Assembly: GCA_024679065.1 (NCBI GenBank)
Contig: JAGIQG010000040.1
Coordinates: forward strand, 9,362,001 to 9,426,000
Length of the DNA: 64,000 bases
Direction: 5' to 3'
DNA from: Sphyrna mokarran
Taxonomy: Eukaryota
The position numbers were made by a program, and so were the translations under genes. Of this stretch, positions 5,213 to 36,814 are shown piece after piece (positions within the stretch are counted from its first letter, which is position 1; the number at the start of each line of letters is the position of its first letter). The notes under the pieces are model-generated. The model saw nothing but the letters and a program-made list of their open reading frames with translations. It searched no databases and was not told where the DNA came from.

Positions 5213-5222
5213 TATTTAAATA
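5213..5222 (-). promoter_or_regulatory. TATA-like box of cluster A VH promoter
   Basis: TATTTAAATA ~90 bp upstream of leader ATG; no adjacent ATGCAAAT octamer seen. Confidence 0.65.
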
Positions 5223-12720: not shown

Positions 12721-13129
12721 GATAAATGCTACAAATCATCATTTCTGAGCTGTTGTTGGTTAGTCAAGAGTACACTTACATTACATGAGATTCCATCTCG
12801 GATACTCTTGTGCTAGGCTCTATGAACGCATCCCTGCTTTACTCTGAATCCTCATAATTTCAATAATAGTTTTTCTATAAAATGCGTCTGGTGGGTAGAA
12901 TGAAATAAAGAGGAGTGAGAAGAATATATGTATATTAACTTAAAAATCAATATAATTATGTAGATGAAAGGAGTTCATTAGTTAGTGTTACTAACTAAAA
13001 GGTGTCGCATATCATACCTAATTGCTCTCATATTGAGTGTAACATTTTTTTGAAAACTTGGGATGAATCTTGTAACATGTTCTGGCTCAAAGGACATTGA
13101 GGAACGGATTAAACTTATGCCACGTTGCT

Positions 13130-13320
13130 TTAAGGGACAATTCAGCATGGCCACTCTAATTAACCTTTATACCTTTGAACTGTAGGAAGAAAGTGATAAA
13201 CCTGGAGGAAACCCACGCACACACGGGTGAATATGCACACATCACACAGACAGTTACCCAAGGCCGTAATGGAACCTGTGTCAGTAATTGTGTGAGGTAC
13301 CAGTGCTAATCACTGTGTAA
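13130..13320 (-). mobile_element. tRNA-derived SINE (HE1/V-SINE-like)
   Basis: GGAGGAAACCCACGCACACACGGG core with A/B-box-like head. Confidence 0.75.
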
Positions 13321-13920
13321 ATAACTGCAGTTGCGTTTAAGTATGCTATGGGTAACTTATTCAGTATTCAGTTACACATTCTATGTCTCAGTCAATACCC
13401 AAAGTTAATGAATTGCCCTGAATCCTCCTGAATGTGATGTACAGCTGGCCATTCTGCTGCCAAGGCAATGCAGCTTTCAAATGACTCTCTTTCTCTGTCT
13501 CAGACTGCAACTAAATTACATAACTTCTGTTTGCTCTGTCAGTATTCATTAATTACATACAGGTACATCGGAGCCGAGCTGGCGACAAATTGACGGATTG
13601 GGGGGGTAGTTTTTTTTCGTTGTTTAAGGCATCTTGTGACTGAAAAGATGAAGTAAAAAGTCTCATCAGAGGAAAATTCAGTGCCGGAAACAGGCCAGTT
13701 CACTCACATCATCTCTCTCTCCTCTATTTCTGTCACACAACACATAAAACACTGAAAGTTTCTACTTTAGAACATTTCCGAAGGAAACAAAAAAAAGTTT
13801 TAATTTTCCCTCTTTTCTATCAGTGATAATCTTCAGTCCATCTTTCCTTCAATCAATTTACATAACCCCAAATATGATTATTTTCTTGATACATTAAAAT
13901 GGGAATGGAGGTGAATGTAA

Positions 13921-14201
13921 TGCTGAGACCGGCAGCAATCTGTGTGACTGTTCTTCGTGCTTTCAGAGTGAGTTCACCCTCACAGGCAGGAAGATTGTTC
14001 ACGGTGATAGCAACAAACTGGCCCCGGTTGGTTTATTCTCAGGTAACACAACTTCCTGTTTCAAACCGCACATCTCACTTCTGAGCAGAAAATAAATCCA
14101 GAGACCACAATGTGGTGAGAACATCTGTCAGTGCGGCCTATATCTGTCCACAGAGTCAGGGCAGAGTCACACAGATCACATTGCGGTGACATTTACAGAT
14201 G
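13921..14201. promoter_or_regulatory. Conserved non-coding block upstream of VH A, candidate enhancer
   Basis: High similarity to 63250-63545; Ets/IRF TTCCTGTTTC, four Runx-type sites, two E-boxes. Confidence 0.5.
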
Positions 14202-14339
14202 AGTGTGTTGTGATCTGCGTCCCACCCATGTCCTCCCCTCTGCCCTCTCCTCGTTAGCCCCATATACTTACCGTGGCTAATCCACATACTCTAATGATAA
14301 CAACATAAAATTTTGAATGGCCAATCCAACTAATACTAT

Positions 14340-15380
14340 GTGTTGTAATATAAACGAGAGACGGGTTTTGTGCAGTAATGCAGAGACAAAGCGGAAAGCA
14401 CCAGATATCGATACAGCAGCTGTACTAATATGAATGCAGACTGGATCCAGTTCAGTCATTACTGAGAGAGTGTATACATTATATTACGAACCAGCGTGGT
14501 GTTTTCTCATATAAACAGAGACATGCCATTCTCAGTTTTGACAAAAACACTGTCTATTCTAATATATGCAGAGACAATATGTGCTGTAATTTAAACTGAA
14601 TCTGGTTCCAGCGCATCAGCGCTATCAGAAAATAGAGACCATGATCTGGTGTGATATAAACAGAGATGTGGCCCACTGAAGTAAAAAGTGTGACAATGCA
14701 GAATAAATCATTAATTGATAAAGGATAGTGTGTGACAGAAACAGAGATATGGTTTGGCGCATTAAAGAAGGAGAGAGCATCCAGCGCAATAAAATTGTCA
14801 CCGAGTGTAATTTTGTATGATTCTGGGCATTGTATAATATAATATAAACTGAGACAAAGCCGATGCAGTCATTTCATACCAAATCTTTACATTGATATAA
14901 TCTTTGACAGGGGCAATTGCAGCAATAAATAAATCATTAAATAGAATAATAATTAAATACAGGATATTATTCGGTATAATAGGGAGGTGCACTAGTACAA
15001 CATTGATTGAGATATTGTCAATGTTTCTTTATACGTGACAGATTTCAGCAATGTAATAACTGAGACACAGTCTTGTGTAATGCAAACAGTAACATGTCCT
15101 AGTGCATTATCAGGAGAGACAGGGTCTAGTGAAGTAACAACGGAGATATGGAGTTTCATGTCATTAGACAAGAATTAATTCCGTGCTGTCATAACTACCA
15201 GAATGAATGGTGTAATGTCAAATGAGGCTTGTTGCGGTATAGTAACAACAGGGATTTTGCTGGGTACAGAATCAACTGAGAACTATTGTCATATTATCAG
15301 AAATATGATTTCGTGTCACGTTTAGAATGAAGACAGATTGAGCCTATTACACAAATAACTGAGATGATCATCTCTATCAT
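14340..15380 (+). repeat. Degenerate ~29-bp tandem array
   Basis: Recurrent AACTGAGACAGGGTCTAGTG(C/A)AGTAA(T/C)A-like units. Confidence 0.6.
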
Positions 15381-17639
15381 GTAGTGTTAAAAAAGCACTG
15401 TTTCACTGCTATCTCCTGGGCTAGCTTTGCTATTGCCGGTGTTGCGAAATGCAGAGTTCAGTTACCATTTCTTATTCTTTTGTGGGCCGTATATCCAATT
15501 GATAACGCCAGCATATATTGACAATGGATAATACACTAAACTATTTCCAACTATGATCGAGTTATCTTATGAGAAAAGGATGGCAACGTCAGGTTTGTGC
15601 TCATGAGAGTTTAGAAGAGTACAGGCAAATTGAGTGAAACCTTCAAAAACCTAAGGGGTGCTAACAGTGTGGGTGTTGAGCAGAGGTTTCCTCTTGATCA
15701 GTGTTGTGGCTTTATTGGATGTGTCTCTGAGTGCAGATATCTTAGGTCTTGGTTCAGGGCCTATTTCCAATGCTATACTATCCACGGGAGGGCGCTCTCT
15801 GATCACTTACCGAATGCCATACCCTCTTTTTGCAGAAAATGACTATTTGCCAATACGAAAATGGGCAGAGAAAATAAATCCCATCATTCAAATTGCATTT
15901 TCACCGTTCTTTTGATTCAACCTTTAACTTTAATACATTTATTTAACTCCAATATCCTCATTCTGAAATAGACAACATTAAACTGCAAGCATGACTGACA
16001 AGCAAAAGAATGCGAGTCACTGGAGTCATCACTCGTAATTTCAATCAAGAAGTAATGCCAGGTCCTCTTCGTTCACTTGCTACACGCAATCATTCCCTGA
16101 CGCGCATCAAACCCAGGCCGCGATGGTGAGAGGACTGATTCCAAACAGATGGACCGTTCGGGAAGATAATGATGGAAAACTTAGCCCGCCTTTCCGCTTC
16201 AGAATTTTAAAAACAAAACACAAGGAATGTTTGTTGGACAACAATCATATCCAGAAAGAACATGAGTGACTCCTTCAGCCAATGAAACACTTATTGTTGT
16301 TACCTGGGAACAAGAAACCGACAGTGAGGTCAAATAGTCCCACAGGCTTTTCATTTGTATCTTTCAATTTTCAAAACCAAGCAACCTCGTCATTGTTGAT
16401 ACTATGAAACTTACGAAGTAACACAAAATAAATATTCGTGTCTTGAAACTATCTGCTTTCCACCTCAGCATTTTGTAGATTTAAAAGCACCATTCTTTAA
16501 AAGTTTAAGCAATTCATTCTACTGATCACTACCGACTTGCCGTGTATTTTACATGGTGATAAAACCTGTACTTGGAATGTAAACAGCAGATAGTAGACAT
16601 TCTCTGCTGATTTGGCAGCATTGTGGACACATAAAGTTCTAAATACTTCCATTCTTTCGCTTTCCTGAATTATAGTGATTATTGCGTTTGCAGAATGGCA
16701 AAATATTTTCAAAGCACTTGACTCACTTCAGCTTGTTTTTGTTAAATGTTAAGGCATTGCATAATCTCATAATGTAGGACTTTTACAGGCCGCCATGTCT
16801 TGAATCTTATCATATAACTGAAGTTATAGATAAATTGACAAAAATTGGGCAAATGTTATTTTCTGAATCTTATGCTCGATCAATGAATGTACCACATGGC
16901 TAAGGTTTTCAGCCGAATTGGAATTCGATTAAACAAGGTTCTAAATTGCAATTAGACGGCACAGTTTGATCTGAGCAGAATTTCTATAATTTGAGGGTTA
17001 ACGTGTAGGATAGGCTCCTTGATTCGGAATGGGGTCGTACATGATCGAAATCTACTGCTTGAAAGTTCCTACATTGTAATTCGTGGTAACTTGTGAACTG
17101 AATATGGATCCAACAAAGTATTAATTTGTTCTTCACCAATTATTAGGAAAAATGCGCTCAGTAAAATTGCTACTGTCCTATTGATACATTTCTTCTTTCA
17201 TTGTCTCACTCAGGGTGCAGTTGATGTAGGTTAGATGCATTAGCCATGGTAAATGTGTGAAGGGTAAGTGGCTTAGGATGGCGAAAAGTGTGTTCAGTGC
17301 AGACTAAAATCACCTCCATCTTGACTGAACGATTCTATGATATTCCCAATGATATTAAGATAGGTGTGGCTCGGACTGAGAAAACTGATCCACCTTGGCC
17401 CAAAGACAAGACATTACAGGTACTATAAATGTCATTTCACAACTGAAAGTTTCGTAAAACTGAGGGACGTGGAGTGTGCTTCAGGTCGCAGGTCTTTATC
17501 AGGAAAAATCCAGTCATTTATTTATTTTATAGCAGTGCAGAGTCAGGTAAAAGATAAAGAAGAGGAATAAACAACAAATGGTCTTATGATAGAAGGGAAG
17601 GCTGGAATTATTATTTGCTAAAGGGAATGATGCTAATAG

Positions 17640-19400
17640 ACAATACGAAATCTCACTGGTTAAAGTCCAACAATTTATTTGGTATCACAAATATTTGGAG
17701 CAAGGCTCCTTCCTCAGATGAATGGAGAGCTGACATTACAAACACACAGACGCAATTGCAAGAAAGTAGTTGGAATTTAAGTCTTTACAGGTAATTAAGT
17801 GTTTACAGATACAGTGTAGTGGGGGAGAATCACAGGTGAAAGTAATATGAATTGTCTCAAGACAAGATAATTAGCGGGATTTTGCAAGTCCAGGCCAAAT
17901 TTTGGGGCTTTTCAGGCCATTCTCATGCAGGACTCGGTTATCAGTTCCTGCTCGGCGATTATGCATGTCATGTGTCTTGAAGGCCACTTTGTAGAACGCT
18001 GACCCAAAGATCGGAGGCTGAGTGCTCTTGACTGCTAACGCTTTCTCCGACCGGAATTGCATCCTCAGAAGTCAAACACGGGACATGACCGACAGATTAT
18101 CCATCGTTGTCTAGTACTTCCGTGGAGCAGAATAAAATTAAAAAAAACATGAGATCTTCTTTGGAGCCTTCAACATGCCATTGATGCCTCCCCACTACTT
18201 GCTTTCAGACAACAGCACAATCTCAAACAGACGGTCGTTTGCAGCAAACTACCCAGCCTTAAAGAGAACAGCTACGTCGTTTCCACACAACGCTGCCACA
18301 TCGACCTCTGCAGGATGTTCCGGATCATCGACATGGATACCACCACAACAAGTGAGGACACTACCCACCAGGTACACGATATATACTCGTGTGACTCGGC
18401 CAACGTTCTCTATCTCATACACAATAAGAAGTCTCACAACACCAGATTCAAAATCAAAAGGTTTATTTGGGAGCAAAAGCCACATTTGTGCTGCCAAATA
18501 AACCTATTGGGCTTTAACCTTATGTTAAAAGACTTCTTACTGTGCTTACCCCATTGCAACGTCGGCATCTCCACATCATATCTCATACACTGCAGAAAAG
18601 AATGTCATGAGGTGTGGTACATTGGTGGAACCATGCAGACGCTATGACAACGTATGAATGACAATCACCAGGCAGAAGTGTTCCCTTCCGGGGGTACAGG
18701 TCAGGAGTCAAGGGCATTCATCTCAAAGAGGAGAGGATCTTCAAGAATATCATCCACATCGACACAAGCAACAAGTTCCTACGATGCAAGAAAGCAGACA
18801 AGTTCCCAGTAGGACTATTGTTCACGAACCCACTCAACTCGAACTTCAACACAGATTACGCTGAGAGACTTTGCCGTTGCACCTCTCTCACACTGCTCAA
18901 GCACCTTGTGCACCAGCTCTACAGTTGACAACACAACCTGAAAACTATGATACAATCCATATTCTGAATTTGCACTTGGAATACAGCAGGCCAGGAACGA
19001 GACATCACCAAGCAGATATAACAACCGGACTACATCATGAACAACAAGAACAGGTAACTTGAGAAACTCGATATCCTCAACAGCACCAACAAAGCCTCCC
19101 CCACTACCACAGCAGAAATCAGTAACTCTGTAGGGAAGTCCATTGTTAACTTGTCGGACTACATCATTCAACCAATCGAAATCAAGGATGTCAGTCAAGG
19201 GCTCAATTTCTGTACCATCACCAAAATGGACCCCATTGATGTTGTGGCAGACATAAATGGAAGCACCAGATGAATGACACTCTGACATTTCTTCAACAAA
19301 CCCCATGCTGCCAACAGCCAACCCAATGGCACAACAAAATTAATTCAGCTGATGAAGGAGAAGCACTTGACTCCAAGTAAAACTGTTGGACTTTAAATTT
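17640..19400 (+). mobile_element. Penelope-like retroelement remnant with inverted 5' copy
   Basis: GIY-YIG remnant YSCDSANVLYLIHC...WYIGGTMQTL*QRMN (18380-18660), PLE N-terminal SIVNLSD...GLNFC (~19140-19215), inverted copy of 3' part at 17640-18110. Confidence 0.85.
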
Positions 19401-19420
19401 GTTTTGCAATCAAGTACCAA

Positions 19421-19672
19421 ATGGCTGATTCCATCGTTTAGCAATCCCACATCTGATTGGCTGAGGTGGTCGTTTAGCCATCTAGTCCCTGACAGGCCGA
19501 GGCAGTCATTTAGTGATCTACCCTTTGATTCGCTGAGGTTATCATTTAGTGATCCCCGCTCTGATTGGCAGTCGTTAGAAATTTTGTCTTTGATTGCCTG
19601 AGATGGTCAGTTATTGACCCAGTCTCTTATTGGCTGGGGAAGTCAGTTAATCATTCCAGGCTTATTGGTTGT
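19421..19672. repeat. Degenerate ~36-bp minisatellite (~7 copies) rich in ATTGG/CCAAT
   Basis: Unit like TGATTGGCTGAGGTGGTCGTTTAGCCATCTAGTCCC. Confidence 0.75.
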
Positions 19673-19674
19673 CA

Positions 19675-20585
19675 CTACATTTTCTTTATTAATTTATTCA
19701 TTAAATTAATAACTGATGTCACCGGATATTTCACCACGATGCTGATCTGCTCCCTGAATTTGGATTGAGTAACCACGTAAATAAATGTATTTGTGCAGCA
19801 ATTTAAATCCCGCAGCATAAATCCGACTGTTCGAAATGTATATTCAGGAATAGTGAGGTAAAATAATCCTCTCACATCTGCATAGAAAAATTTTACAACA
19901 TAAACCGGCCAGAGCAGAATGAAAGCTCCGGATATGCTGAAGAGTAAAATCATTGACTTCCTTCTGCTGTCCATTTCGGGGTCCCTGCGATTATCTCCCT
20001 TATTCTGAGCCTTCAGTCCTTTCCGCACTCGACTAGTCACTAAAATGTGACTGATTGTTAGGGCATTAATCAACAGGATTAAACTGAATGGGAGCAGTGG
20101 GGTTAAAACCTGATTAAACCAGTTAAAGCCAATCCATCCAGGATCAGTCCAAGTGCTTGACTTGGCATTACAGCCCCACTTGGCATTGTCAATTATCAGT
20201 TGAGGTTCATATATAAAGTAGAAGGGAATGTTTTTCGCAAAGAGCAGGATGCCAGTTGTTGCCAGAACCACAGCTGCAGTTTTCCCAGTGCAATATTTAA
20301 TTTTCATTTTTTGGCAGCGAATAGCCACAAATCGATCAAAGGAGAAAGTGACAGTGAACCAGACAGAGCAGTCTGCAGATGCAGTCTCCAGGACAGCTTT
20401 AACCCGACATACACATGTGAGGGACAGGAAATTCAGGGGGAAATAATAATTATTTATGTAGTTGAGAATGGGGTTTATGATGATGAACAGTAGATCCACC
20501 ACTGCCATGGCCACCAGGTAGCGAGTGGTGCAGGTGGAGAGGCCACACTTTCCCCGACTCAGGATCACAATTCCCAGTAAATTAA
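19675..20585 (-). CDS. GPR139-like class A GPCR exon 2 (spliced protein 325 aa)
   Basis: Acceptor AACAG|TT; VNLLGIVIL (TM1), YLVAMAVVDL (TM2), FSFDRFVAI (DRY-like), PLLPF (TM5), FILLWP (TM6), LNCCTNTFIY (TM7), SKFRE (helix 8); no stops. Confidence 0.92.
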
Positions 20586-21409
20586 CTGTTAGAAAAACAA
20601 GAAATAAGAACCTAAAAATTAGTGAGTGCATTTTCTACATGTCTGAACTGAAAGAAAGGGAATTTTTCAACATCAATCCAATGGGCAGGATTTCCTGATG
20701 TGGCGTTGTTTTGGAGGAGTTCAGTTAGAGATTAACATTGCAGGCTGAAAAGTCGTCAGTGTAACACTGCAGGTTAAACGGGACTGGGGGTCAAGAAACT
20801 GTGAATTAGACATCTCTCAATTTGATGGAGGAAATCTGCAAATTCTGATTATATTAATATTGTTGAGAGTTTGGATTTCTTATTTGATCCGTTTTACAGG
20901 ATAAACTGGGGCTGGACAAGTTTCCTAATAAGACCTGAAACGCACAGAAATATGCCAGCGATTGGCAGTGTAATCTGCCATCCCTTCCTGGACTCAATTA
21001 TAAAAGGCCACACTAGATTGAACTTCTTTCTGCACTGGTCACCTGATGGATTTTGATGTAACTTCAGGATTACTTATCCCTTTTTCAAATCTCTTCCTCA
21101 TTCTATCTTTTTATTCTAACTTTTCTATTTCTAGTTTCCAGATTCCTTGTTCTTTTTGTCTCTCTTTCCTTTCCCTCTCTCTGTCTCTGCATTTCCCCCG
21201 CTTTTTCACTAATCTGACCCTTGTCATCCTCTTTCTCTCCATTTGCCATTTTGTTCCCCAATCTCAGATTTCTCTCCCATTCACTCTCTTTCCATTTTTA
21301 ACACCTATTCTAACTTTCTCCCAGTATTTATAAATCTTTCTTCAAATATTTCTCTCTCACTCTCCTCATATCTATTCTGGCTCTCTCCAACATCTCACTT
21401 TCTTGCTGT

Positions 21410-22600
21410 TTAACAAAGAATTATATAAAAACAGCAGCAGAAGGAAAAAATGTGGGCTTTCGAGCCTGCTCTGTCATATATCACAACCATGGCTGATCGT
21501 CCAACTCAATAACCTAATGTTGCTTTCTTCCAATAACATATGTTCCCACTCACCCCGAGTGCAATATGTAGTCGCACTTTCAATACACTCCATATTTTTA
21601 CACCAACTTCCGGCGGTAATGAATTTCACAACCTCACCATTCTTTGGCTCCCCATCCCTATCTGGAAAACTCTACCCAGTATCCTGAGACTGTTATCTCT
21701 GGTTCTGGACACATCCTCCATTAGGAACATCTGTTCTCACCCTATTAGAATTTTATGAGTCGGGTATGAGATCTCTCTCATTCATCTGAACTCCAGCGAA
21801 AACAATCCTAGTCTATTTAACTTCTCACACCTTAGTTCCACAATCTCTGGAATCAACATAGAGAGCCTGCACTCCCTTGAGAGCAAAGACATCCTTCCTC
21901 CGAGGAGACAACAATTGCACACAATATCCTAGGAGTGGTCTCACCAAGTTCCTGTATAATTGTAAGACACATTCCTGCTCCTGTACTCGAAACTTCTTGC
22001 CGTGAAGGCCCACATACAATTTGCTTTCTGTACTGTTTGAGGATCCTGCATTCTTATGTTCAGTGACTGGTGCACATGGACGTCCAGGATCTATTGCATA
22101 CTCCTCTCTCTTCCAATTTACAGTCATTCAAGTAGTAATCTTTCTTATTGTTTTGTTTCCAAAGTAAATAACCTCACATTTATCCAAACTATACTGCATC
22201 TGTCATTGAGTTAAAAACTCCACCAACCTATCCAGATCATGCCGATAGATCTCTGCATCCTCGTCACAGTTCTGTATCCCAGCCAAGTTGGTGCAAACTG
22301 CAAAATTTGAAACCTTACATTTTGTTCACTCGTCAAATCATTAATAGGTGTTGTGAATAGCTAGAGCCTCAGCACCGATCCCTGTAGCACGACACTACCT
22401 ACTGCCTATCAATTTATAAAGGACCAAATAAATTCCTAATCTTTTTTTCATCATTGTCAGCTAGTTTTTTTTTAAACATCTCAATACTCCTCTCGCAATC
22501 CCACATGCTTTAATCGTGCTAAATAATCTCACATACGGGATTTTGGCAAACACTTTCTGAAAGTCCAAATATATCATTTTGACTGGCTCCCTCTTGTCAA
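21410..22600 (-). mobile_element. Degraded CR1/L2-type LINE 3' fragment
   Basis: VLQLYRNLVRPLLGYCVQ RT C-terminal motif in ORF 21825-22127. Confidence 0.75.
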
Positions 22601-22683
22601 TTCTCGTCACAATATTTTAAAGATGTTTCTCTCCATCTCTCTCTATCTGTGTCCAGCATTTCTCTCTCTCGCGCGCGTGTGTA

Positions 22684-25423
22684 TAGAACATAGAACATAG
22701 AACATAGAACATTACAGCACAGAACAGGCCCTTCGGCCTTCGATGTTGCGCCGACCAATATGAAAAGCAATGCCCCTCCAAACTAAACCATTCCCTTCTC
22801 TTCCATATACTTATCAACTAATCTCTTAAATGCCACCAAACTTGGCGCATCTACAACTGCTGCAGGCAGGGCATTCCACTCCCGAACCACCCTTTGGGTA
22901 AAGAACCTACCTCTGATATCCGTCCTATACTATCACCCCTTAATTTAAAGCTGTGTCCCCTCGTGCTAGCTTTCTCCATCCTAGGAAAAAGGCTATCACT
23001 GTCCACCCTATCTAAACCTCTAATCATCTTATATGTTTCGATTAGGTCCCTCTTAGCCGCCTCCTTTCTAACGAAAACAACCTCAAATCCCTCAGCCTCT
23101 CTTCATAAGACCTGCCCTCCATACCAGGCAACATCCTGGTAAACCTCCTCTGTACCCTCTCCAATGCCTCCACATCTTTCTTATAATGTGGGGACCAAGA
23201 ACTGCACACAATACTCCAAGTGCGGCCGCACTAGAGTTTTGTACAGTTGCAACATGACGTTGTGGCTCCGAAATTCAATCCCTCTACCAATAAAAGCCAA
23301 GACTCCATATGCCTTCCTAACAACCTTCTCGACCTTACTGCCTACTTTCAGGGATCTATGCACATACACACCAAGATCCCTCTGTTCATCTAGACTACTA
23401 AGAATCCTACCATTTGCCCTATACTCTACACATTTATTATTTCTGCCATAGTGCATTACCTCACACTTTTCCACATTAAACTCCATTTGCCACCTCTCGG
23501 CCCAGCTCTGCAACATGTCCAAGTCCCTCTGCAAACTATAACACCCCTCTTCACTATCTACCACTCCACCGACTTTAGTGTCATCTGCAAATTTACTAAT
23601 CCATCCTTCAATACCCTCATCCAGATCTTTTATAAAAATTACAAACAGCAGGGGCCCCAAAACAGACCCCTGAGGTACACCACTTGTCACCGAACTCCAC
23701 GATGAATATCTCCCATCAACCACCACCCCCTGTCTTCTATCTGCTAGCCAATTCCTAACCCAATTAGCTAAATCACCCTCTATCCCATACATCTGCATTT
23801 TCTGCAGAAGTCTCCCATGGGCCACCTTATCAAACGCCTTACTAAAGTCCATATATACCACATCAACCGCCTTACCCCCATCCACCTCTTTGGTCACTTT
23901 TTCAAAAAACTCAATAAGGTTAGTAAGGCACGACCTACCCTTCACAAACCATGCTGACTATCCCCAATCAATTCATTTCTCTCTAAATAACTATAAATCC
24001 TATCCCTAATAATTCTCTCCAATACCTTGCCCACAACAGAAGTAAGACTCACTGGCCTATAATTCCCTGGCAGGTCTCTCTTCCCCTTCTTGAACAATGG
24101 GACCACATTCGCTATCCTCCAGTCCTCCGGAACCACACCCGTAACCAACGACGACCTGAAGATCAGAGCCAGAGGCTCTGCAATCTCCTCACTTGCCTCC
24201 CAGAGAATCCTAGGGTAAATCCCGTCCGGCCCAGGGGACTTATCCAACTTCAAACCCTCGAGAATATCTAGCACATCCTCCCTATCTACTTCGATACCTT
24301 CCATTTTGCTACCCTGTACCTCAGTGTTCTCCATAACTACATTTACATCACCCTGCGTGAATACCGAAGAGAAATATTTATTCAGTACCTCTCCAATCTC
24401 CTCAGGCTCCACGCACAACTTCCCACTGCTGTATATGACTGGCCCTAATCTTGCCCTAACCAATCTTCTATTCTTAACATATCTAAAGAAAGCTTTAGGA
24501 TTCTCCTTAATCCTATCAGCCAAAGTCTTCTCGTGTCCTCTCTTCGCTCTCCTCAATTCACTCTTTAGCTCACTCCTGGCTAATCTATAGCTATCCATTG
24601 CACTAACGGAGCCTTCAAGCCTCATCCTGACATAAGACTCCTTTTTCCTTTTAACCAGCAAATCAACTTTTTTCGTACACCAAGGTTCTCTTACGCGACC
24701 ATTTCCTCCTTGCCTGACAGGGACATACTTATCAAGGACTCGCAGCAGCTGCTCCTTGAATAAGCACCACATTCCAGATGTTCCCAGTCCCTGTATTTTC
24801 CTAGTCCAATCTATGCACCCTAATTCTCTCCTGATGGCCTCATAATTACCCTTCCCCCAGCTATAACTACTGCCCCCAGCTTCATGCCTATCCCTATCCA
24901 TCACTAATGTGAACGTAACCGAATTGTGGTCACTATCACCAAAATGTTCACCAACTTCAAAGCCTAACACCTGGTCTGGCTCATTGCCCAGCACCAAATC
25001 CAATGTAGCCTCACCTCTAGTTGGCCTATCTACATACTGAGTCAAAAAACCTTCCTGCACACTTTGTACGAAAACTGACCCCTCTAACGAACTAGAGCTA
25101 TAGCTATTCCAATCAATATTAGTAAAGTTAAAGTCCCCCATAACAATTACCCTATTACTTTCACTCCTGACCAGAATTGACTTGGCAATCCTTTCCTCTA
25201 CCTCTCTAGAACTTTTAGGAGGTCTATAAAAGACTCCCAACAGGGTGTCTTTTTTTCTCCTTTTTTCTCCTTTCCTGTTTCTAATCTCAGCCCATACTAC
25301 CTCAACAGACAAGTCCTCATCAAACTTCTTCTCTGTCACTGTGATACAGTCTTTGACTAATAATGCCACTCCTCCCCCCCTTCTACCTCCTTCTCTACTC
25401 CGACTAAAGCATTTATCCCCCAT
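22684..25423 (-). mobile_element. CR1-clade LINE, 5'-truncated, near-intact ORF2 (APE endonuclease + RT), in the GPCR intron
   Basis: ORFs 23942-25423 (MGDFN, SDH, KSPGPDG, NYRPVSLTS) and 23181-23945 (DFSKAFD, GVPQGSVLGP, KFADD); frameshifts at ~23943 and ~23190; (AGAACAT)n tail at 22684-22712. Confidence 0.95.
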
Positions 25424-25689
25424 TCCTGTTTATCTCCCCAACATCTCTCCTTCTCTCCTTCTCTCTCTCTCATATATATTCTCCCCGTTCCTGTTTATCT
25501 CTCCAACATCTCTCTTTCTCTCTCTCTCTCTTTCTCTCTCTAGTATTATATGAGTAATTTTTAAGCACAGCAGAATGCCATGGGAAACAATGTAACGGGA
25601 CAACGGAGAGGCATTTCATTTCAACAGCCTTACGACTGCTATAATCCCAATCTAGCCACTGAATTCCACATGTATTCCGAATTACAAAG

Positions 25690-26370
25690 AACAATGAACA
25701 AAGAACAACTCAGCACGGGAAACAGGCCCTTCGGCCCAACGAGCCCGCGCCGCCGTCCTAACGTCTTAATGACATATAGAGACCAATATAGGGACAATTT
25801 GTTACCCAATCAGCCTAAGAGCACATTTTTGGGATGTGGGATGAAACCGGAGCACCCGGAGAAAACCCACGCAACCACGGGGAGAACGCGCAAACTCCCG
25901 CAGACACAGGCCCAAATCCATGTGTCTGCACAGCAACAGCGATAGTCTCTGAGCTATCATGTTGCCCATCTGATGGTCCAGTTTAAGCATACACTAACGA
26001 CGTGAAGCACTAGGCTACTCCTGAAGTAACATCCAGGAGCAGCCCTCACACGACCTGTCGAATGCATGCACCTTGTTGGTCAACAAGGTGGACGGAACAG
26101 CCTGTGGAAACAATTAAAGTATTTAAACAGTCCTCCTATATCCCTCTATCTGCAGACCGCTCATGTGGCTGTCCAAGAGACCCTTAAACAACCCTAGCAT
26201 GCCTGCTCCCACCACCTTACTCGGTAGTGCATTCCACACCCCCACTACCCTTTGTGTGAAAAACTGCCCTCTAATATTAGTCTTATGCATAGCCCCCCTC
26301 ACCCTAAGACCGTGACCCCTCGTTCTATCCGAATCTAATGCTGGAAAAAGCTTACCTCCCCTCAGTGATA
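25690..26370 (-). mobile_element. LINE 3' end with SINE-like segment in its 3' UTR
   Basis: RTRGH...FFTQRVVGVWNALP* followed by GAGTTTGCGCGTTCTCCCCG body and CR1-type tail; same family as 61211-62275. Confidence 0.8.
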
Positions 26371-27239
26371 GAAACACAGAAACAACCATGTTGAAAGTGG
26401 AACATACTGTGCCTATTCCTTTGGTACTTTCTTTAAAAAAAAGGTTTACTGTGCTTATTAATGTATTAAGCAGTTTATTTATTTATACATTGATTGATGT
26501 ATGTGAATCAGTAAAATCAGAGGGCTGTTGCTGATGCTTTTCTGCAGAGACTGGAAACTGGGAATAACCTCAACCTCCAGACTCCAGGTACTATGTCTTT
26601 TCACAGGCCCTCACAGCAATTTGATTTGTGGTTATTGGCAAAGTCATCAGGAATATGGCATCGCTCCTTTAAACACAATGCATGAGAGATAGGGAAAGTT
26701 GCAGAGACATGGGCAGCAGGAAATATGTAGAACGAGGGTCGAATTACACTGGTGGGCGGTTTGGTGCGGAGGTAAGAACATCCACCTTTTCAATTAAGGT
26801 AACAGTTTCAGAAGGAGAAGAAACAAGGATATAGTGAAACGGAGACAGGTGGAAACAGAAGATCAAAACAGATGGTGATGCAGGAAGAGGATTTGAGAAA
26901 GAGAAACAAGATTCGAAGGTTTCAGGGTATAGTGACTGGATACAGTTCCAATCGTACCCTCTCAGATAGTCTGAATTTGTGGAGAAAAGTCCTGGGAGGG
27001 TGATTTTAAAAAGTGCTAGAAAGAAATCCCAAACTGAAAGAAGGAGTTGAGTAGCTTCTGGATACTGAGAGCGGGGCAGGGGATGGACAGGGTGGAGGAG
27101 GACTAACATTTTCATTCAGTTTCAAAAGATTCTGTTTCAGGTTCTCTATCTTTTTCCTTTTCAAATTTCTGCCCGATTTGAAGAAATTGAGGAAAGTGGA
27201 GAGTAAGTGAGAATGAGGACACTAAAGACAGAGAGGTAT

Positions 27240-28380
27240 AGAATGATAGAATCATACAGCACGTAAGCTCTTCGGCCAATTGTGCCTGAGTCTGCACGTG
27301 ATAAACAGTTGAAATTTTATCTAACCTCATGTCCCACACCTGGCCCATAGCACTGAAATGCCAAGTGCTCATCGAAATTATTTTTGAAGTATACGAAGCA
27401 ACTGGTTTCTACCAGCCTCATGTGCAGTGCATTTCAGACCGTCACCACCTGCTGGATTAAAAACGTTTTCCCTCACAATCGCCTCCTCTCCCCACCCAAA
27501 CATTCTTATCTTCATCTAGAAACCTTCTACCTTGTGACTGACCATTTAATTAAGGAGAACAACCGTTTCTTCTCTACTCCATCCACCTCTCTCCTAACCG
27601 TGTACAACACGATCAGCTTGCACCTCAGTTGTTCTGCTCCAAAGAAATCAAACCAAGCCTATCCAAGCACTTTTCATAACATTGATGTTCCAGACCAGAC
27701 AGCATCCTGATGATTTTCCTCTGCACCTCTCCAAAAAAATAGCGACCAGACTTCCACATGACTCTCTAGTTGTGGCCTCACTAATGTTCTATAAAACAAC
27801 AACATGTAATCCTCTTTGTAATCTGTGTCTCGAATGTGATCTGTCTCACCGCCCTACTCACATGCCCTTCTGCTGCCAGAAGTCTGTGGGCAACCAGCTC
27901 AAAGTCCCTTTGTTCCGCCGAGCTTTCTCGTATCCTACATTGAGTACTTCATTGTCAAATCATTCTTTCATAAGTTTATCATCTCACATCTTTCAGAATA
28001 AATACCATCTGCCACTTGCCTGCACATTCGTATATTCCGTCTATATCTTTTTTGCAAGCATTACACGCTCATTAATACATTATTAGGCACCCTTCCATTG
28101 TTGGTGTTATCAGCAAAATTAGTTATAGCCTCGACACATCATCAATGTGTCACTTGCATTAATTATGAATAATCGGGGCGCAACACAGATCCTTCTTGTA
28201 CGCCACTGGACACTGGTTTGCAGTCACTAAAATACCTTTCTATCATCATCCTCTGCTTCGACAATTGAGCCAGTTTTGAATCAATCTTATCAAATTACCC
28301 TTTATCCTATGTGAATTAGCCTTCTTTAAAAGTTCCCCCATGTGAAACCTTGCAATGCTTTACTGAAATCCTTACAAACC
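27240..28380 (-). mobile_element. Degraded CR1 LINE fragment
   Basis: Similar to RT/3' parts of other CR1 copies in the window. Confidence 0.65.
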
Positions 28381-28940
28381 TGGTATTTTCTTCTGGCATC
28401 TTTCTGAAAATACACCCTGGCCTCCAATGCAACGCTGAGCACACTTGAACAAAGAATTAATTCGTGGATTATAAGCACATGGATATATAATGTCATAACT
28501 AGATGATACTTAGATCAGATATTCCATTCTGCTGAAATAATCACAAACAGTCCAGATCGACACTGACAAATAGACCATGTAATATATATTCATTGGTGTC
28601 GGATATTCCACTTTGGTTAGTGATCCACATGTAGAGTTTGGATTTATTCTTACTCCTATAAAAATCAGAGAAATCAACTTCACTGAAATCCGATCTCTCA
28701 ATATACGCAATAATATTGAATACAATTATTTCACTGATCATTGAGCCTGTGAGATTATTCTGTTATTGACAATAATTAAAATAATAGAGATAATACAAGA
28801 AATTTGATTTAAATGAATTTCATCATTCATCTGGTGTGTGTGTAGCACTGTGCATCAGATCAGCAGAGATATTTTCAGTTCAAAATCAGAAAGTTTTTCA
28901 AACACAGATTGAAACGATTTGACCGGTTATAGTCACTTAC

Positions 28941-29007
28941 CAGGAACACCAATAATGGCAATGATTGGGTAGATTATTTTCGCAGCTTTCTCAACTGGAT
29001 ACAACAT
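28941..29007 (-). CDS. GPR139-like GPCR exon 1 (MLYPVEKAAKIIYPIIAIIGVP)
   Basis: ATG at 29007, first half of TM1, donor CCTG|GTAAGT in phase with exon 2; TATAAA at 29096-29091. Confidence 0.88.
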
Positions 29008-29439
29008 TCTCAATGTGCAGTAATGAATCCCTTCGTGCTGCTCAGTCTCTCTGTCTTAATCTGTGAGCTATATATTCCCAAAGCCTTTAATTTATACATT
29101 CTAGAATCAGCTGAGGAACATTGAGGGAGAACAAAGGTGAGAAGTTATTTTTTAACACATGAACAAACAGATTGCAACATTGAGTTCAGTGATGAAAACA
29201 TTTATTTTTCAATGGAATGACGGCTTTCAAAACACTGGATTCTGTTGATCACATTTATCATCCAATAGTAAATGGAAAGACACTGCCCACTCAAACAATC
29301 CCATCTCTCGGTCTCAGTTTGTTACAGTGATATCTGGACTGTGACCATTCAGTAACTAAGTTCCAACAGTTACCGCGTCTCTCTGTGTGTGATGTTTAAC
29401 TGGATATTCATTTCAGTGACTTAAGTGGATTAGGGATTT

Positions 29440-29722
29440 CGATAATTCCAAAATTCTGCTTATCAACACGATGGGGCATAGCTTTAAATTGAGGGGTGAA
29501 AATTATAGGACGGATGTCAGAGATAGGTTCTTTACTCAGAGGGTAGTAAGGACGTGGAATGTCCTGCCTGCAGCAGTTGTGGACTCGCCAACTTTACAAG
29601 CATTCAAATGGTCATTGGATAGACATATGTATCATATTGGAATGGTTTAAGTTAGAGGGTCATTAGATTGGTTCCACGGGTCACCGAAGGGCCTGTACTG
29701 GCCGCAGTGTTCTATGTTCTAT
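29440..29722 (+). mobile_element. CR1 3' terminal fragment
   Basis: FFTQRVV.TWN motif, tail GGGCCTGTACTG...TTCTATGTTCTA. Confidence 0.75.
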
Positions 29723-30719
29723 AATAATCTGGAAATACTAACGTGCAAAGAGAATTATTTTACCCCTAAAACAAAAACAGCTACTGAAACTGAGAAATCA
29801 TTTAGAAAATGGGATATCACAAAAAAGTCAGACACTGCAACACACACAATCACATCATCTCATAGTAAAAAAAAATAACTGTGACAAGTAATGCACAGGC
29901 TCCAGCTTATATTTGTCCCACATCTGATTCACAACCTTATCCTGGGAGAGAATCGGGTGAGGATAATGAATGGATAGGAGTGAGAGAAGAAGACTCTAAG
30001 AGATGAAAGTGAAGAAGAGGAAAATAGAAAGAAATATACAGAGGGAGGGAGTCTGGGAGAGGTTATGAGGAAGCAGATAATGTGATAGGAATCGTGTTTA
30101 TGTAAGCAACTTAAACACGTGAGAATTCAGCTCCATCTTAAAAGAATCGGTGCAGTGCTCACTTTAAATAATTGAGCTGACGTATTGAGTCCTGTTCTGG
30201 GATACACACTTTATACATGATATGAAGACGTTGGTGAGAGAAATGGAGGAGAGGGTCTAACAGGAAATGGCAACTGGAATGAGAGAGAGGAAGAGACATT
30301 GACTAAGAGAGTGATGGCTGAAAACGGAGGAAGATGTCAACGAATACAGAGTTAGTGAATAAGACAGAGGCGCAATTTAAATCAAAGGTTTGACTATCCA
30401 CTCAGGGATTGAGAGTGAGAGACAAAGGGGTGAGTTGAGGAAGGAACATTGATGGAATGAGAGAAAGAGAAAGTGGAGGCGAGGGGTAGAGAGATGAGGC
30501 GAATGAAGCAGATACCAGATAATGGAGAGAGAGAGCTGGAGCAAACGGAAAGAGAGAGAAACAGAGTGAGTGAGGAGAGTTGGGCCAATGGAGGACGAAC
30601 GATATGAGGAAGGAGGGATTGGGCCATAGAGGGAGAGATGAGTGAGAGAGAGAATAGACTGAAAAATGACATGGTGATAGATGAATTTGGGAAAGGGTGT
30701 GTAGATAGTTTGAGTCATG

Positions 30720-31480
30720 TTGAGATCAAACAAGATAAGATATTGGGATTCTAGGAAACGTACAACAAATGGCTGAACCGTTAAGAGAATTGAAGGGCAG
30801 AGGGATCTGGTTGTACAGGTACACAGGTCACTGAATGTGGCAACGCGGAGGGAGAAGATAATCAAGAAAACAGAAGGCATGCTTGCCTTCATCGGCCGCG
30901 AGATTGAGTTTAAAAAACTGGCCACTCATGTTGCAACTTCACAGGACTTTAGTTGGTTTGCACGGGGAATGTAGTGTCCCATTCTCGTAGCCACACTACC
31001 AAAAAGATGTGGAGGTTTTGAAGAGGATACAAAAGAGATTTACCAGAATGTTGCCTGGCATGGTGGGCATTAGCTATGAGGAGAAGTGGGAGATATTTTA
31101 TTTGTTCTTAACAGAATGACGGTGGTTGAGGGTTGACCTAATAGAAATCAAGACGATTACGAGTGGCATGGACAGATTGGATAGAAGAAGCTTTTCCCTC
31201 GATGCAAGAGTCAATTACTAGGGACATAGGTTTAAGATGTGGGGGCAAGGTGCAAAGGAGGCAAGCTTTTTTTTTCACAGAAGGTGGTGGGTGCTTGGAA
31301 TTATCTGCTGGGGGAGGTTTTAGAAGCAGAAACGATAGTGAGTTAAAGGGGGCGTTTTGATAATACATGAATAGGATGGGAATAAAGGAATCTAGACCCC
31401 GGAAGGGTAGGGTACTTTACTTCAGCCAGGCAGCACAGTCGGTGCAGACTTGGAGGGACCAAGGGCCTGCACCTGTGCTA
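30720..31480 (+). mobile_element. CR1 LINE 3' fragment
   Basis: Decayed RT C-terminal coding similarity, same family as 43330-44105. Confidence 0.75.
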
Positions 31481-31666
31481 TAATTTTCTCTTTTTGTCTT
31501 TCTTCTTTGTTGGGACGATGGAGGAGTTTTGAAGCAATTGAGTTAGAAAAGTTGTACAGAATGGAGAAAATCACCGAGAGAGGGAGAGATAGAGTCAGGG
31601 AGGGGGAGATAGGGTGAATGAGTGATAGGCGAGTGAATTGGGGAGAAACGGGGGATGAAACAGAAA

Positions 31667-31972
31667 GGCACAGTGACACTGTGGTTAACTATTGTCTCAC
31701 AGCGCCAAGGCCCCAGGTTCAAATCCGGCATCAGGTCACTTTCGGTGTGGAGTTTGCACGTGTTCTCCGTGTCTGTATGGGTTTCCTCCGGATGTTCTGG
31801 TTTCCTCCCATAGTCCAACAATGTGCAGCTAGGTTGATTAGCTACGCTGAATTGTTCACTATTGTCAGCGGAACTCGCAGAGTAAAATATGTGGGATTGT
31901 GGGAATAGAATGGGTGGGAATGTGGTCGAAGGAATGACCTCGTGCCGTACTGTAGGGTCATACGATTCTATA
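31667..31972 (+). mobile_element. tRNA-derived SINE (HE1/V-SINE-like)
   Basis: A box GGCACAGTG..., B box GGTTCAAATCC, TGTGGAGTTTGCACG core, LINE-like tail. Confidence 0.85.
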
Positions 31973-31979
31973 AAACGCA

Positions 31980-32900
31980 GAGGGATGGAGGGATAGATGT
32001 GGCAAATGAGGAAAACAAAGAGCAAGCGGTTGGAGAGACGGACCGAACAAGGAAGAGAAGGAATGAACGATGGAAAGATGCTATAGGAAGGTTTGCTGCA
32101 AAGGATGAATGATGAAGAGATGGAGCAAATGAAGGAGACTTAGGGGAATGAGGGAAAAATGACAGGGATCGAAGCGAGGAAGGGAAAGACAGAGTGAATG
32201 TGGGAGAGCCCGGACAAATGAGAGCGAGACGGGGCAAAGGAGGGAGGGATGCGGTGAGGTAGGCAGAGACATAATGGAGTCGGGAGAGACTGAGAGACGG
32301 AGGGAGAGATGGTGCAAAGAAGCGAGGGATGGGGAGAGGGTTGAGGCAGACCTTGACAGGATGAGAGAGTCATTTGCCAGTGAGGGAGAGATGCGTTGAG
32401 GGAGGGAGTAACAGGATAAGGGCAAACAGGAAAAGAGAACTATGGACAGTGCGAATGAGGGAAAAACTGGACATGATAAGAAAAATGGAGTGACTGCGGT
32501 ACAAAGTGGGGCACAGGAGGGTGAGGGAGGAACATTGCAAATGAGGGAGAGACAAGTTTTCAAAGGGACAGACCGGGTGAATAAGCAGTGATGAGATAAT
32601 GAATGGAGCAAACGTAGGAGAGACGGGACAATGAAGCAAGCTTCATGGGTGCTGAGTAAGAAAGTTTATAAGGAATGGAAAAATTCGATAAGAAAGTGAG
32701 AGACAGGACGACGAAGGAGAGACAGTGAGGGAGAATGCTTGCAGGTTTAGGAGGAAGAGAGGGGCGAACGAGGAGAGTGCAGGTTTGGCAGGGAGAAAGC
32801 GTTTAAGAGATAGATAGGGGGAGGGGGAATGAGACAAATAGGGGAAGGACAGTGTGAGCTATTGAGGGAATGACAGAGCAAAATTGGGTGAGTTTGGGCG
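31980..32900. repeat. GA-rich polypurine low-complexity region (also ~29940-30700)
   Basis: Strong purine strand bias; gives spurious Leu/Ser/Pro ORFs on the - strand. Confidence 0.8.
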
Positions 32901-32919
32901 AATGAGTGTGAGCCAAAGA

Positions 32920-35520
32920 ATATAGAACAAAGTGCAAAGAACAGGAAAGGAATAGGTCCTTCTATCCTCTATGTCTATGGCGATCACGATACCGACCCAA
33001 ACTAAAACCATAGGAACTTACAGAGTTCATTTCGTCCATTCCAATCCTATTCATGCATTTATTTAATTGCCCCTTAGATATTTCTATCGTACGTGCCCCC
33101 TTCACTAACTTAGGTACCGCGTTCCAGACATTCAGCATCCTCTGTGCAAAACACTTATCTTCAATATCTCCTCCAAACGCTTCCCCACATACATAAAATT
33201 TTGACCATTAGTACTTGACTTCTCTATGCTAGGGAAGAGCATCTGACTATCCACTCTGTCCATGCCACTATAATGACCTGTACCACGTCATCCCCTCAAC
33301 CTCCATCGTTCCAGTGAGAAAAAACTGTTTTTAACCAACTTCACCTCATAGCTAATACTCACCAGATCAGGGAACATTCTGGTAAACATCTTTTATATCC
33401 TTTTTCAGTCATTCATATCCTTGTGGTTATGTGTCGACTAGAATTGTACACAACATTCTAAATAATGCCTAACTAAGGTTATGCATAGCTGGAGCATAGC
33501 CTGCCATTTTTATACTGAAAGCCCCGACTGATGAAGCCAGGCATGCCATATGCTTTTTTGACCACTGATTGGTGGGCATGTACGCACATATATCTCTACT
33601 AGTCAATACTCTTAAGGGTTCGACCATTTAATTATAAATACTAAATGCATTAGATCTTCAAAAATGTATTATCTCAGGCTTGTCCGGATTAAACTCCTTC
33701 GTCCTTTTCTCCGTCCAAGTGCCCAACTAGTCAATACCTTGCCGCACTCACTGACAGTTCACTTCACTGTCCGCAACTCCACCAAGTTTTGTGTCACCTG
33801 TGATATTGGACCAGCTACATTTTCCTCCAAATCATTGATATAAGAACAACACATGTGGCAGAAATGATCCCTGTAGAATACCGCTAATCGATTCAGAAAA
33901 ACACCTCTCTACTTCTACGCTCTGACTGCGATGGCCAAGCCAGTACTCTGTCCAGCTCGCCAGCTCTCCTCTGATTCCGTGTGATTTCACCTTTTGCCCA
34001 CTCTATCACGAGGTCATTGTCAAAGGCTTTACTAAAGTCCATTAATACAACATCTATTGTCTTGCTCTCATCTATCATCTTCGTTAATTTGTTGAAACAT
34101 TCGATTAAGTTAGCGAGGCACAATTCCATCCTACCCCTCACATCGCCTTCACAAAATAGTGCTGTTTATCACTAATTGGACCATTTGTTTCCAGATGTGA
34201 ACCAATCCTTTCCCGAAAATTTCTTTCTGGTAATATCTCTACCACTGACAGAAGGCATTCAAACCTACAATTTCCTGGTGATCCCGCTGACCCTTTTAAA
34301 GAAATGGGACAACATTAGCTATCCTCCAGTCCTCTGGGTCTTCACCTGTAACCAATGATGATTCACAAATCTCTATCGAGGCCCCAGCAATTTCTGCCCT
34401 TGCCTCGCTCAGTGTTATGGGGTGGATCCCATCAGTTCCGAGGGAATTACCTACTTTTTTTTTAGGTTTGCCCTAAGCCTTCTCCTTTTTGATATCGACA
34501 TGACCCAGAACGTTTACATACTCTACCCTAATCTTCTCATCCAACCAGTCCTTCCTTTGGTTTATAGCGAGGCAAGGTATTCATTTAGTATTTCGTCCAT
34601 TTCTTCTGGTGTCATGCATAGATTCCCTTCACTATCCTTGAGTACACCAAACTTCCCCTAGCTACTTTCTTGCTCGTTACATACAAATAAAATGCCTTAG
34701 GATTTCCCTTAATCATATTTATTAAGGATCTTCATGCTCTCTTTCAGCCCTCCTAAATCTTTCCTGAAGTCCTTTCCTATGTTCTAAATATTCTTCACGG
34801 CCTTTATCTGTCCTAAGCATTTTAGACCTTATGAATGCCTCATTTTTATTTTTAACAAAGCTCATAACATCGTTATCCGGGTTTCCCGATACATGCCACA
34901 CATATTCTTCATCCTCACAGGTACATACTGGTCCTGAATTCCAATCAACTGACATTTGAAATTTTCCCACATATCAGCCATTGATTTATCCCCAATCTAC
35001 ACTCCCAGATCGTGCCTACCGTAGTTGTAGTTAGTCTTCCCCAAGTTTAATACCTTTTCCTGAGGAATACTCTCGCCCAAATCCACAAGCGCCTTAATAC
35101 TTATTGAAGTATGACTATTGTTCACAACATGCGCTATTACTAAGATTTCAATCAATTGGCCAGGCTCACTTCCAAATACCAGGTCTAATATGGCTCCTTC
35201 TCGAGTTTGGCTATTTACAAAATGTGTCAAGCCGCTGAACGCCCCTTGCAAGTTCTGTCCCACCCACTCTTCTCGCTGTAAGTGAGGCCCAGTCAACAGA
35301 GGGAAAGTTAAAATCGCCCACCACAGCTACGCTGTTGTCTTTGCATCTTTCCAAAATCTGTCTGGATATCTGTTCCTCTATCTCCTGTTGACTGATGGGA
35401 AGCTAGTATAAAACCTCAATATTGTGACTGTTCCCTTCATATTCGTGAGCTCTACCCACATAGGCTCGCTGCCTGAAACCATCCCGATCGCCAATCAATC
35501 CAGACTGACATCCTAGCACA
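32920..35520 (-). mobile_element. Old fragmented CR1 LINE
   Basis: ORF pieces CLANLIE...MDFSKAFD (33893-34141) and TREGAILDLVF (34997-35296). Confidence 0.85.
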
Positions 35521-36814
35521 AGGTTGTATGTTCTTTTCTCCTATCCTTCTCCATTTTCCTTTACTCTGTAGTTGTTTGTGAACAATTAAATCTTCAAAAT
35601 GTTCCAGTTTGGATAAAAGGTCTGCTACCTGAAACATCCACACTATTTCTCTTTATTGTTGCTTTTTGACCTGCTGGGTGTTTCCAATATTTTCTGTTTT
35701 GACCTGGAATTTACAGCAGCTGTGGTATCTTGTTTTTGGCTCGAGATGGATCAGTTTCATCTGACTGAAAACTATCTGTTCAAACAGATAAACACATGAG
35801 GTTTGAAGTAATGAGGCAGCATATGTCACAACATTTGACATTGAATGAAGCAAAATGAGAATTGATCATTTCATAAAATATTATTAACACAATATATATT
35901 TCATTGTCGTGGCCAGTATTTGCTTGACATCCTTAATTCTCTTGAACTGAATGTTTTGCTGAGCCATTCAATAGCCCAGTTTACAGTCAATCACATTGCC
36001 GTGGATCTGGGCTCTTGTGCATGATAGATTTGGTAAAAATGGCAGGTTTCAATTTGTAGGGGACCGGAATTTTTCACGGCAATCAGAATAAAAATCTTCA
36101 TTTGTGAGTCCAGCTTTCACTTCAGTTTCAGCTCCAGGCTGTGGGGGATTTGAAACTGTGTCCCTGGGCCTCGGGATTCATACTCTCTGATTTTACCATA
36201 ATGTCATTACACTCTCGGATAAAGGCACATTGAAACAAACATTCCAACCAATGCGCCGTGGAAATCAGTGTCAGACACTGAGAGTATAGAGTAATGAACG
36301 AAACATTCCTTGCTCTCATTCAAATGCAGAAAAATGTAATGATCCCTCAACGGGTCATTCCCAATCTGGAGTGGGAGGAATAGGGAACTGTTCAGTCCCT
36401 GAATTTTTATCAGAACTGGAAACAAGTTACAGTTAATTAAAATCACAGAAGAAAAGGTTTGTGATCATGTGGAAGGCGGGGCACATTAAATAACAACGTA
36501 ATGATGAAAGGGGAAAGTGGTGGGAATTGGAGAAGTTAAGAAATTAAAGTGAGTAATTATGTATTTGTCATCTGTTTATGCTCTGCTTGAAATGTTTTAC
36601 TCTGTTGACCACTTCACTTCTCTCCCACACTGAACAACTTCAACGCGAAAACAGAAAATTTTGAAAAATCTCCGCCGTTCTGACGGCAGCTTCGGTGAGA
36701 GAGCAGAGTTAACGTTCCGGGTCGGGTCTATGCTCTTTCTGCAGAGACTGACAGACATGCTGAGATTTTCCAACGTTTTCTGTTTTTGTTTCAGATGTTG
36801 GAATCCACAGTTTT

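Follow-up and report, generated by a model that had tools for sequence, protein, structure and literature searches.

A 64,000-nucleotide stretch of the shark Sphyrna mokarran (contig JAGIQG010000040.1, here C994, positions 9,362,001-9,426,000; this whole stretch is called the window, and coordinates without a contig name are positions in it) carries a gene for a predicted seven-transmembrane (7TM) receptor between two immunoglobulin M (IgM) heavy-chain clusters, A and B. All three share one orientation, on the minus strand. Exon 1 of the receptor gene (28941..29007, 67 bp, ATG at 29007) encodes a short N-terminus and most of the first transmembrane helix; exon 2 (19675..20585, 911 bp, stop codon 19677-19675) runs from the end of that helix to the C-terminus. 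The intron between them (20586..28940, 8,355 bp, phase 1, GT..AG) has a GTAAGT donor, a pyrimidine tract, and an AG acceptor, and a TATAAA box (29091..29096) lies upstream of exon 1 in a proximal promoter (29010..29480) that matches paralogues on contigs without IgM at 72-77%. Joined in phase 1, the exons give 325 amino acids with a terminal stop only, a DRF motif at residue 106, and an NTFIY motif at residue 288. Measured from exon TM2 of IgM B (38618-38610), the TATA box is 9.5 kb away and the receptor ATG 9.6 kb, and the leader ATG of the variable gene of cluster A (VH A, 5124) lies 14,551 bp from the receptor stop. The preliminary description, written from the DNA of the window alone, had drawn the same picture, and its gene model (TATA box, 67-bp exon, 8.36-kb intron, 911-bp exon, 325 residues), its judgment that the 7TM frame is intact with variant DRF and NTFIY motifs, and its placement of the gene, co-oriented, 9.6 kb from IgM B and 14.5 kb from VH A were all exact when measured again.

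The block containing exon 1 and the promoter, with its ATG and open frame, is present in each of the seven closest paralogues that were fetched, as is the TATAAA box, and this recurrence shows that the gene model is not a product of chance. The two exons would be spliced together as modeled. The exon 1-exon 2 joint was absent among 15 of 605 joints in contigs from three runs compared with positions 19300-39200, where relatives of the exons and flanks were seen. We also considered a fusion of the immunoglobulin and receptor transcripts and rejected it: the junctions of Cmu4 and exon 2 are both phase 1, yet the splice would lose most of the first transmembrane helix. None of 27 longer public family models contains an Ig C1 domain. 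Identity to neighboring paralogues is 97-99% at the start of exon 2 and falls to 83-89% near its end, which suggests patchy gene conversion along the exon. Two copies (L008, C994:9,084,369, and L009, C994:10,260,201) are 97% identical to the window receptor and have no first third of exon 2; each lies upstream of an A-like VH, and they appear to be remnants cut at duplication edges. The window receptor is an ordinary intact member of its large family. Within its intron, a high-copy minus-strand repeat (22690..25430), recognized by copy depth and reverse-transcriptase-type open reading frames, is one that we take to be related to long interspersed elements.

On the evidence of its Pfam match, predicted fold, and key residues, the receptor qualifies as a class A (rhodopsin-like) G-protein-coupled receptor (GPCR). 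Exon 2 scores 63 bits against Pfam 7tm_1 (curated cut-off 30.5), and its predicted model is a class A 7TM bundle with helix 8 (pLDDT 85) whose fold resembles those of peptide receptors (Z about 19-20). In an alignment of 48 rows, made up of C994 copies and close relatives on other contigs, N1.50, D2.50, C3.25 with the Cys of extracellular loop 2, D-R3.50, P5.50, W6.48, N7.49, and Y7.53 are near-invariant, and P6.50 and P7.50 are mostly missing. Several intracellular cysteines are retained in the family, in which the usual prolines of TM6 and TM7 are mostly lost (residues 36, 41, 113, 121, 250, 289); residue 250 aligns with the TM6 proline of GPR139. An odorant receptor was rejected as a candidate identity, as only 7tm_1 is matched at E<=0.01, with no 7tm_4 or other Pfam match of the odorant-receptor type.

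The relation to GPR139 is a distant one. GPR139 and GPR142 are described as orphan class A receptors with Trp, Phe, and peptide agonists; human and zebrafish GPR139 are 70% identical, the gene has two exons, and the agonist pocket comprises E3.32, F3.33, H5.43, W6.48, R6.51, and N7.38 (PMC7318219). Among solved structures GPR139 is the best sequence match of the window receptor, at 32.3 bits, and the mu-opioid receptor follows 1.5 bits behind (30.8). A fold search places solved GPR139 at rank 10 with about 20% identity, and GPR139 is absent among the 50 best rows of a second structural ranking, so that fold searches show no preference for it. The vertebrate receptors and the shark receptor have in common two coding exons (exon count alone was compared), E3.32 and W6.48, and the missing TM7 proline. 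They differ in that identity is only ∼20%, four of the six pocket residues are changed (T, N, Y, and F at F3.33, H5.43, R6.51, and N7.38, leaving two of six matched), and the shark family has about a thousand copies rather than one. Orthology to GPR139 was rejected on these values of identity, bit score, and pocket match. The top Atlas clusters for the receptor are named GPR139 and the next are Srw/FMRFamide-type receptors; GPR139/142 are placed as sister to the Srw/FMRFamide-type group (PMC8557429), and the orphans GPR210A/B have been placed under GPR139/142 in a study whose accessible sections do not mention sharks (PMC6504862). These neighbors and placements would agree with a remote position within the GPR139/142-FMRFamide-receptor group, and "GPR139-like" is best read as a database label for a distant relative rather than as orthology.

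The family itself is very large, and in this respect the preliminary description, which spoke of a great expansion of GPR139-like genes in sharks, was correct. At E<=1e-10 the window receptor has 1,784 public matches. The top 120 align over 95-100% of its length with 59-76% identity, come from sharks or rays where a species is named, and are almost all annotated as "probable GPR139" or "probable G-protein coupled receptor 139". The elasmobranch proteins so named in NCBI and UniRef belong to the same family as the window receptor, the name being automatic. Two family motifs were counted in the genome: one of 17 bases has 419 occurrences (control 1), and one of 20 bases has 976 (control 2). These counts take in pseudogenes, and 976 is a lower bound on family loci; the 20-base motif is present in 27 of 40 C994 copies, a fraction that would imply about 1,450 loci in all. 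When the genome was searched with proteins, 2,439-2,525 loose family candidates came up. Full-length frames without a stop are found in 28 of 34 aligned C994 copies. The family lies mostly in arrays without immunoglobulin heavy-chain (IgH) genes, of which C1548:103.61-105.05 Mb is a pure tandem example, with about 113 copies among the 133 rows from a single search, spaced at about one per 13 kb and almost without exception on the same strand; three close copies of its members sit on C994 at 6.31-6.33 Mb. Of the matches scored, those belonging to the nine-copy subclade of the window receptor are all on C994. Two public models from a ray and a catshark (P0147, P0148) join family fragments to VSIG10L2-like and NLR-like genes; these are probably annotation chimeras, with a hint of other immune neighbors.

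The ratio of nonsynonymous to synonymous substitution rates (dN/dS), a check that the preliminary description had proposed, is 0.20-0.37 when the window receptor is compared with four close paralogues of full length and 0.52 and 0.77 with two truncated copies; it is 0.23 in the receptor's clade and 0.25 in a second clade, values that indicate purifying selection. Over the 48 rows, helix entropy is 1.46 bits in the outer halves and 0.77 in the inner halves; many different residues occupy the pocket positions of TM3, TM5, TM6, and TM7, and D2.50, D-R3.50, N7.49, and Y7.53 are invariant. A conserved G-protein face with a hypervariable pocket is the pattern of a ligand-diversified repertoire, in which the receptor would serve as a G-protein-coupled sensor. 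From the distant relationship to GPR139/142, we would guess at small aromatic or peptide ligands. Odorant receptors, TAARs, V1R/T2R, and MRGPRs are the large sensory GPCR repertoires of vertebrates. These share with the shark family their tandem arrays, birth-and-death evolution with pseudogenes, near-single coding exon, conserved G-protein face, and variable pocket; the shark family differs from odorant-type repertoires in its Pfam matches and in its DRF and NTFIY motifs.

How closely do these receptors keep to the IgM clusters? A search with Cmu4 found IgM-type matches at 26 sites on C994, eight on C1082, and two on small contigs; clusters outside the window are named below by contig position. 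Six merged protein searches and fetched DNA put at least 134 family loci on C994, spread over 2.6-12.3 Mb, and 47 of these lie within 50 kb of a Cmu4. A family member is found 5-25 kb 3' of Cmu4 in 21 of the 26 C994 clusters, as against seven or nine in equal 5' intervals. The expected number is 6.4 under circular shift and 10-11 under local jitter, where none of 1,500-3,000 trials reaches 21. Inside fully fetched regions the count is 16 of 17 against 11.5 expected (19 of 3,000 trials), and with near-duplicates collapsed it is 12 of 17 against 5.9 (2 of 1,500). These p-values are optimistic, as the 5-25 kb interval was picked after the data had been seen, the clusters are related, and one of the 21 nearest matches is a fragment. 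In further flanks, cluster 9,964,257 proved to have a partial gene on its 3' side and 9,452,856 a 147-bp remnant, giving 23 of 26 and leaving three C994 clusters with no receptor on that side. On C1082 no receptor was found in 221.5 of 436 kb, which covers the 3' flanks of six of the eight clusters (six of six without). The 3' association is real on C994 and is not universal: the enrichment near IgH clusters that the preliminary description had anticipated is borne out on that contig, and its supposition that each minilocus has a receptor fails.

Other comparisons set the scale of the association. Overall, family density is only about twofold higher near IgM (1 per 46 kb versus 1 per 88 kb); of 40 spaced 10-kb bins on C994, five are positive versus 37 of 125 near IgM (p 0.037), a difference of little weight, the IgM regions having been partly chosen for their receptors. 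In the 10 C994 clusters where 30 kb could be inspected, the 15 kb next to VH are free of receptors. Distant Ig constant-domain matches at C994:0.61-0.70, 6.89-6.98, and 7.56 Mb, likely IgW/IgNAR, and at C772:7.94-8.99 Mb, likely light-chain clusters, have no listed receptor within 25 kb on the 3' side. Orphan IgM-like membrane exons occur at C994:4,080,401, 9,251,809, and 10,119,173 with no nearby Cmu4. Single-exon C2H2 zinc-finger genes are many on C994 (samples from 2.1-11.0 Mb; 4.19-4.20 and 9.28-9.32 Mb) and at C1082:342-382 kb, and they take the place of receptors 3' of cluster 4,180,225 and of some C1082 clusters.

The preliminary description had proposed that the two families were amplified as one module, and the trees do not bear this out. 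IgM neighbors fall into at least four deep, well-supported receptor clades (52 rows, with 18 of 21 outside loci retained after a length filter) that are up to 55% apart in protein, and Cmu DNA diverges by at most 17% among the clusters compared. Thirteen neighbors are convergent with IgM and eight are co-oriented. The congruence check that had been suggested for linked receptors and Cmu gave a Mantel rho of -0.07 (p 0.75, 15 pairs; -0.09 for 12 collapsed), and clusters 8888482 and 10107760 are an example of close Cmu (7.1%) with unrelated neighbors (54%). For clades I and IV, close relatives (72-84%) turn up on contigs that carry no IgM, C960 among them; most members of clades II and III are found on C994, where they also occupy sites far from IgM.

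Copying of IgM and receptor together is, nonetheless, visible in subsets of clusters, and this part of the co-amplification proposal stands while a single module does not. The three A-type clusters are 89-97% identical from membrane exon TM1 through the receptor promoter, and clusters 8920, 9130, and 9201 are 92-95% identical through a convergent receptor. A segmental duplication of ∼70 kb, spanning receptor G3, IgM A, and the window receptor (window part 1..37435), is found again at C994:10.167-10.239 Mb in pieces 94.5-99.8% identical; the homology ends at 37435, 1.2 kb before TM2 of IgM B. From these limits, the latest duplication of the window receptor appears to have taken IgM A and not IgM B. 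A tandem repeat of about 52 bp (C994:9,324,045-9,327,000) adjoins the left edge of this duplication. The receptor units of B and A are alignable at 70-81%, but the stretch from TM2 to the upstream flank of the receptor is not; the B flank 670-7,760 bp past TM1 has no alignment to the A flank. In most cluster pairs the 3' homology stops 0.7-2.2 kb past TM1, the 5' homology often extends several kb to more than 10 kb, and continuous homology from the membrane exons to the receptor is limited to subsets. The alignments show block co-duplication of IgM and receptor for recent copies, within trees that are globally incongruent. A chance meeting of two multigene families on one repeat-rich chromosome, with no co-duplication of consequence, might be read from the zinc-finger genes and the receptor arrays far from IgM that C994 also carries, and from a density only about twofold up near IgM. 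The direct block duplications and a 3' enrichment beyond four nulls speak against it; we hold it the least probable account of all, and the ∼70-kb duplication has largely refuted it already.

We favor, with reasonable though far from complete confidence, an explanation in which IgM cassettes multiplied by segmental duplication inside older receptor arrays and carried neighbors along in some copies, with no fixed Ig-receptor module. The unit would be conserved for a long way on its 5' side and would stop about 2 kb past the membrane exon on its 3' side, and would spread within a receptor-rich region that also holds C2H2 zinc-finger genes. Given a receptor-dense neighborhood and a short 3' flank, the 3' edge of the unit would usually meet a receptor gene, whose identity would shift by lineage, and the neighboring receptor would sometimes be copied with it.

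Several observations weigh against this explanation. Under the strictest null, in which IgM cassettes are excised and breakpoints are random, a receptor is expected at 0.645 per side, and 17 of 18 were observed (p 0.004), or 11 of 12 with duplicates collapsed (p 0.04); neutral insertion alone falls short of the full 3' enrichment. The Cmu exons look homogenized, identity between A and B being uneven (96.7% in Cmu4, 78% in Cmu1), which could mask congruence. Cluster 3495886 has neighbors in the positions of two other module types: at 2.9 kb lies a clade II gene in convergent orientation, the arrangement of 8920/9130/9201, and farther out a clade I gene is co-oriented with IgM, the arrangement of A and B; flank pieces match those types at 68-79%. 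These last observations, with the strong 3' bias, are what one would look for if the ancestral unit had been an IgM cluster with several receptors of different clades, amplified whole, followed by differential loss and by Cmu gene conversion that erased congruence, with no functional link. We regard this as unlikely, though worth keeping in view: in most cluster pairs the flanks cease to be homologous within about 2 kb of TM1, the clade III and IV neighbors do not fit one ordered unit, and the C1082 clusters, although nested among those of C994 in the Cmu tree, lack a receptor in the flanks inspected.

The residue left by the excision null, and the excess of 3' receptors over the 5' side and the nulls, would also be expected if 3' receptors were kept by selection through IgH regulation, either switched on in B cells via the 3' enhancer of an active minilocus or serving as silent boundaries that insulate the miniloci from one another. 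The many C994 copies of full length without a stop agree with this, as does the report that shark miniloci rearrange independently with few activated per cell (PMC2435157). The parts of both IgM clusters in the window are all on the minus strand. Cluster A has a leader, VH, two D segments, and JH (3370..5124), its Cmu lying left of the window, with the same VH-D-D-JH-Cmu anatomy and recombination signal sequence (RSS) layout as the shark IgH miniloci described in PMC2435157. That account places nurse-shark loci at least 120 kb apart and, in its available portion, names no intervening genes, whereas clusters here may be separated by no more than about 30-50 kb from one Cmu4 to the next, with receptors between. 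Cluster B has VH and JH (55660..56593), the constant region of Cmu1-Cmu4 with a secretory tail (42068..46700), and membrane exons (38610..38830, TM1 ending at 38756). Its VH has an in-frame TAG in framework region 1 at 56394, and neither a valid VH RSS nor a D-type RSS heptamer between VH and JH was found; given the stop and the missing D signals, cluster B, upstream of the receptor, is likely a pseudo-cluster and probably unable to rearrange. Its Cmu exons are open, and its Cmu is the most divergent of 22 compared, at 14.4% from A and 14.2-17.3% from the other clusters, A being no closer than these. A Triakis scyllium record shares 94% identity with the window IgM. Over 321 bp, VH A (4630-4950) has the same sequence (100%) in three clusters, including C994:9,063,709 and C994:10,205,813; such identity points to very recent copies or conversion, and the 99%+ block may be an assembly duplicate.

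The likely pseudo-cluster upstream of the window receptor argues against selection through IgH regulation, as do the variable clade, distance, and orientation of the neighbors, the intact-looking C1082 clusters without such a neighbor, and a purifying selection that is family-wide and, as far as tested, not special to linked copies. The promoter argues in the same direction. For its 470 bp, 33 of 40 scored matches lie off C994 (72-77%), and the proximal promoter is family-generic and not derived from or specific to Ig genes, contrary to the first proposal of shared Ig regulatory elements as far as the promoter is concerned. A scan of five promoters for B-cell motifs found no octamer and no common motif pattern; with three of its anchors a few bases off, we give it no weight. 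Retention by selection is, in our estimate, improbable. Transcription of the receptor would start from the promoter typical of its family, probably without a tie to B cells. A bolder version, to which we assign only a very small chance, has the linked receptors driven by the enhancer of the active minilocus, so that each B-cell clone would carry a stochastic ligand sensor drawn from a repertoire of 1,000-1,500 pocket-variable GPCRs; if true, a B-cell ligand sensor would be tied to the heavy-chain locus of each clone.

Segmental duplication of IgM cassettes within older receptor arrays is the explanation with which we continue: the interleaving of receptors with IgM is real and 3'-biased, and is most likely a by-product of shared segmental duplication. 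A literature search, in which subscription journals were thinly covered and supplements may list the expansion, found neither an account of this receptor family for sharks nor one of receptors lying between IgH clusters, and the family is apparently a very large and undescribed elasmobranch receptor family. Cartilaginous fishes are portrayed as relatively poor in GPCRs in the part of the literature represented by PMC8455134; with a single class A family reaching at least 976 loci, this shark contrasts with that picture. The size is comparable with that of the mammalian odorant repertoire, and the family may constitute a new sensory or innate-sensing system. For the heavy-chain loci, the DNA between shark IgM miniloci is filled with receptor genes in a 3'-biased manner, which bears on how the miniloci multiplied and on their independence.

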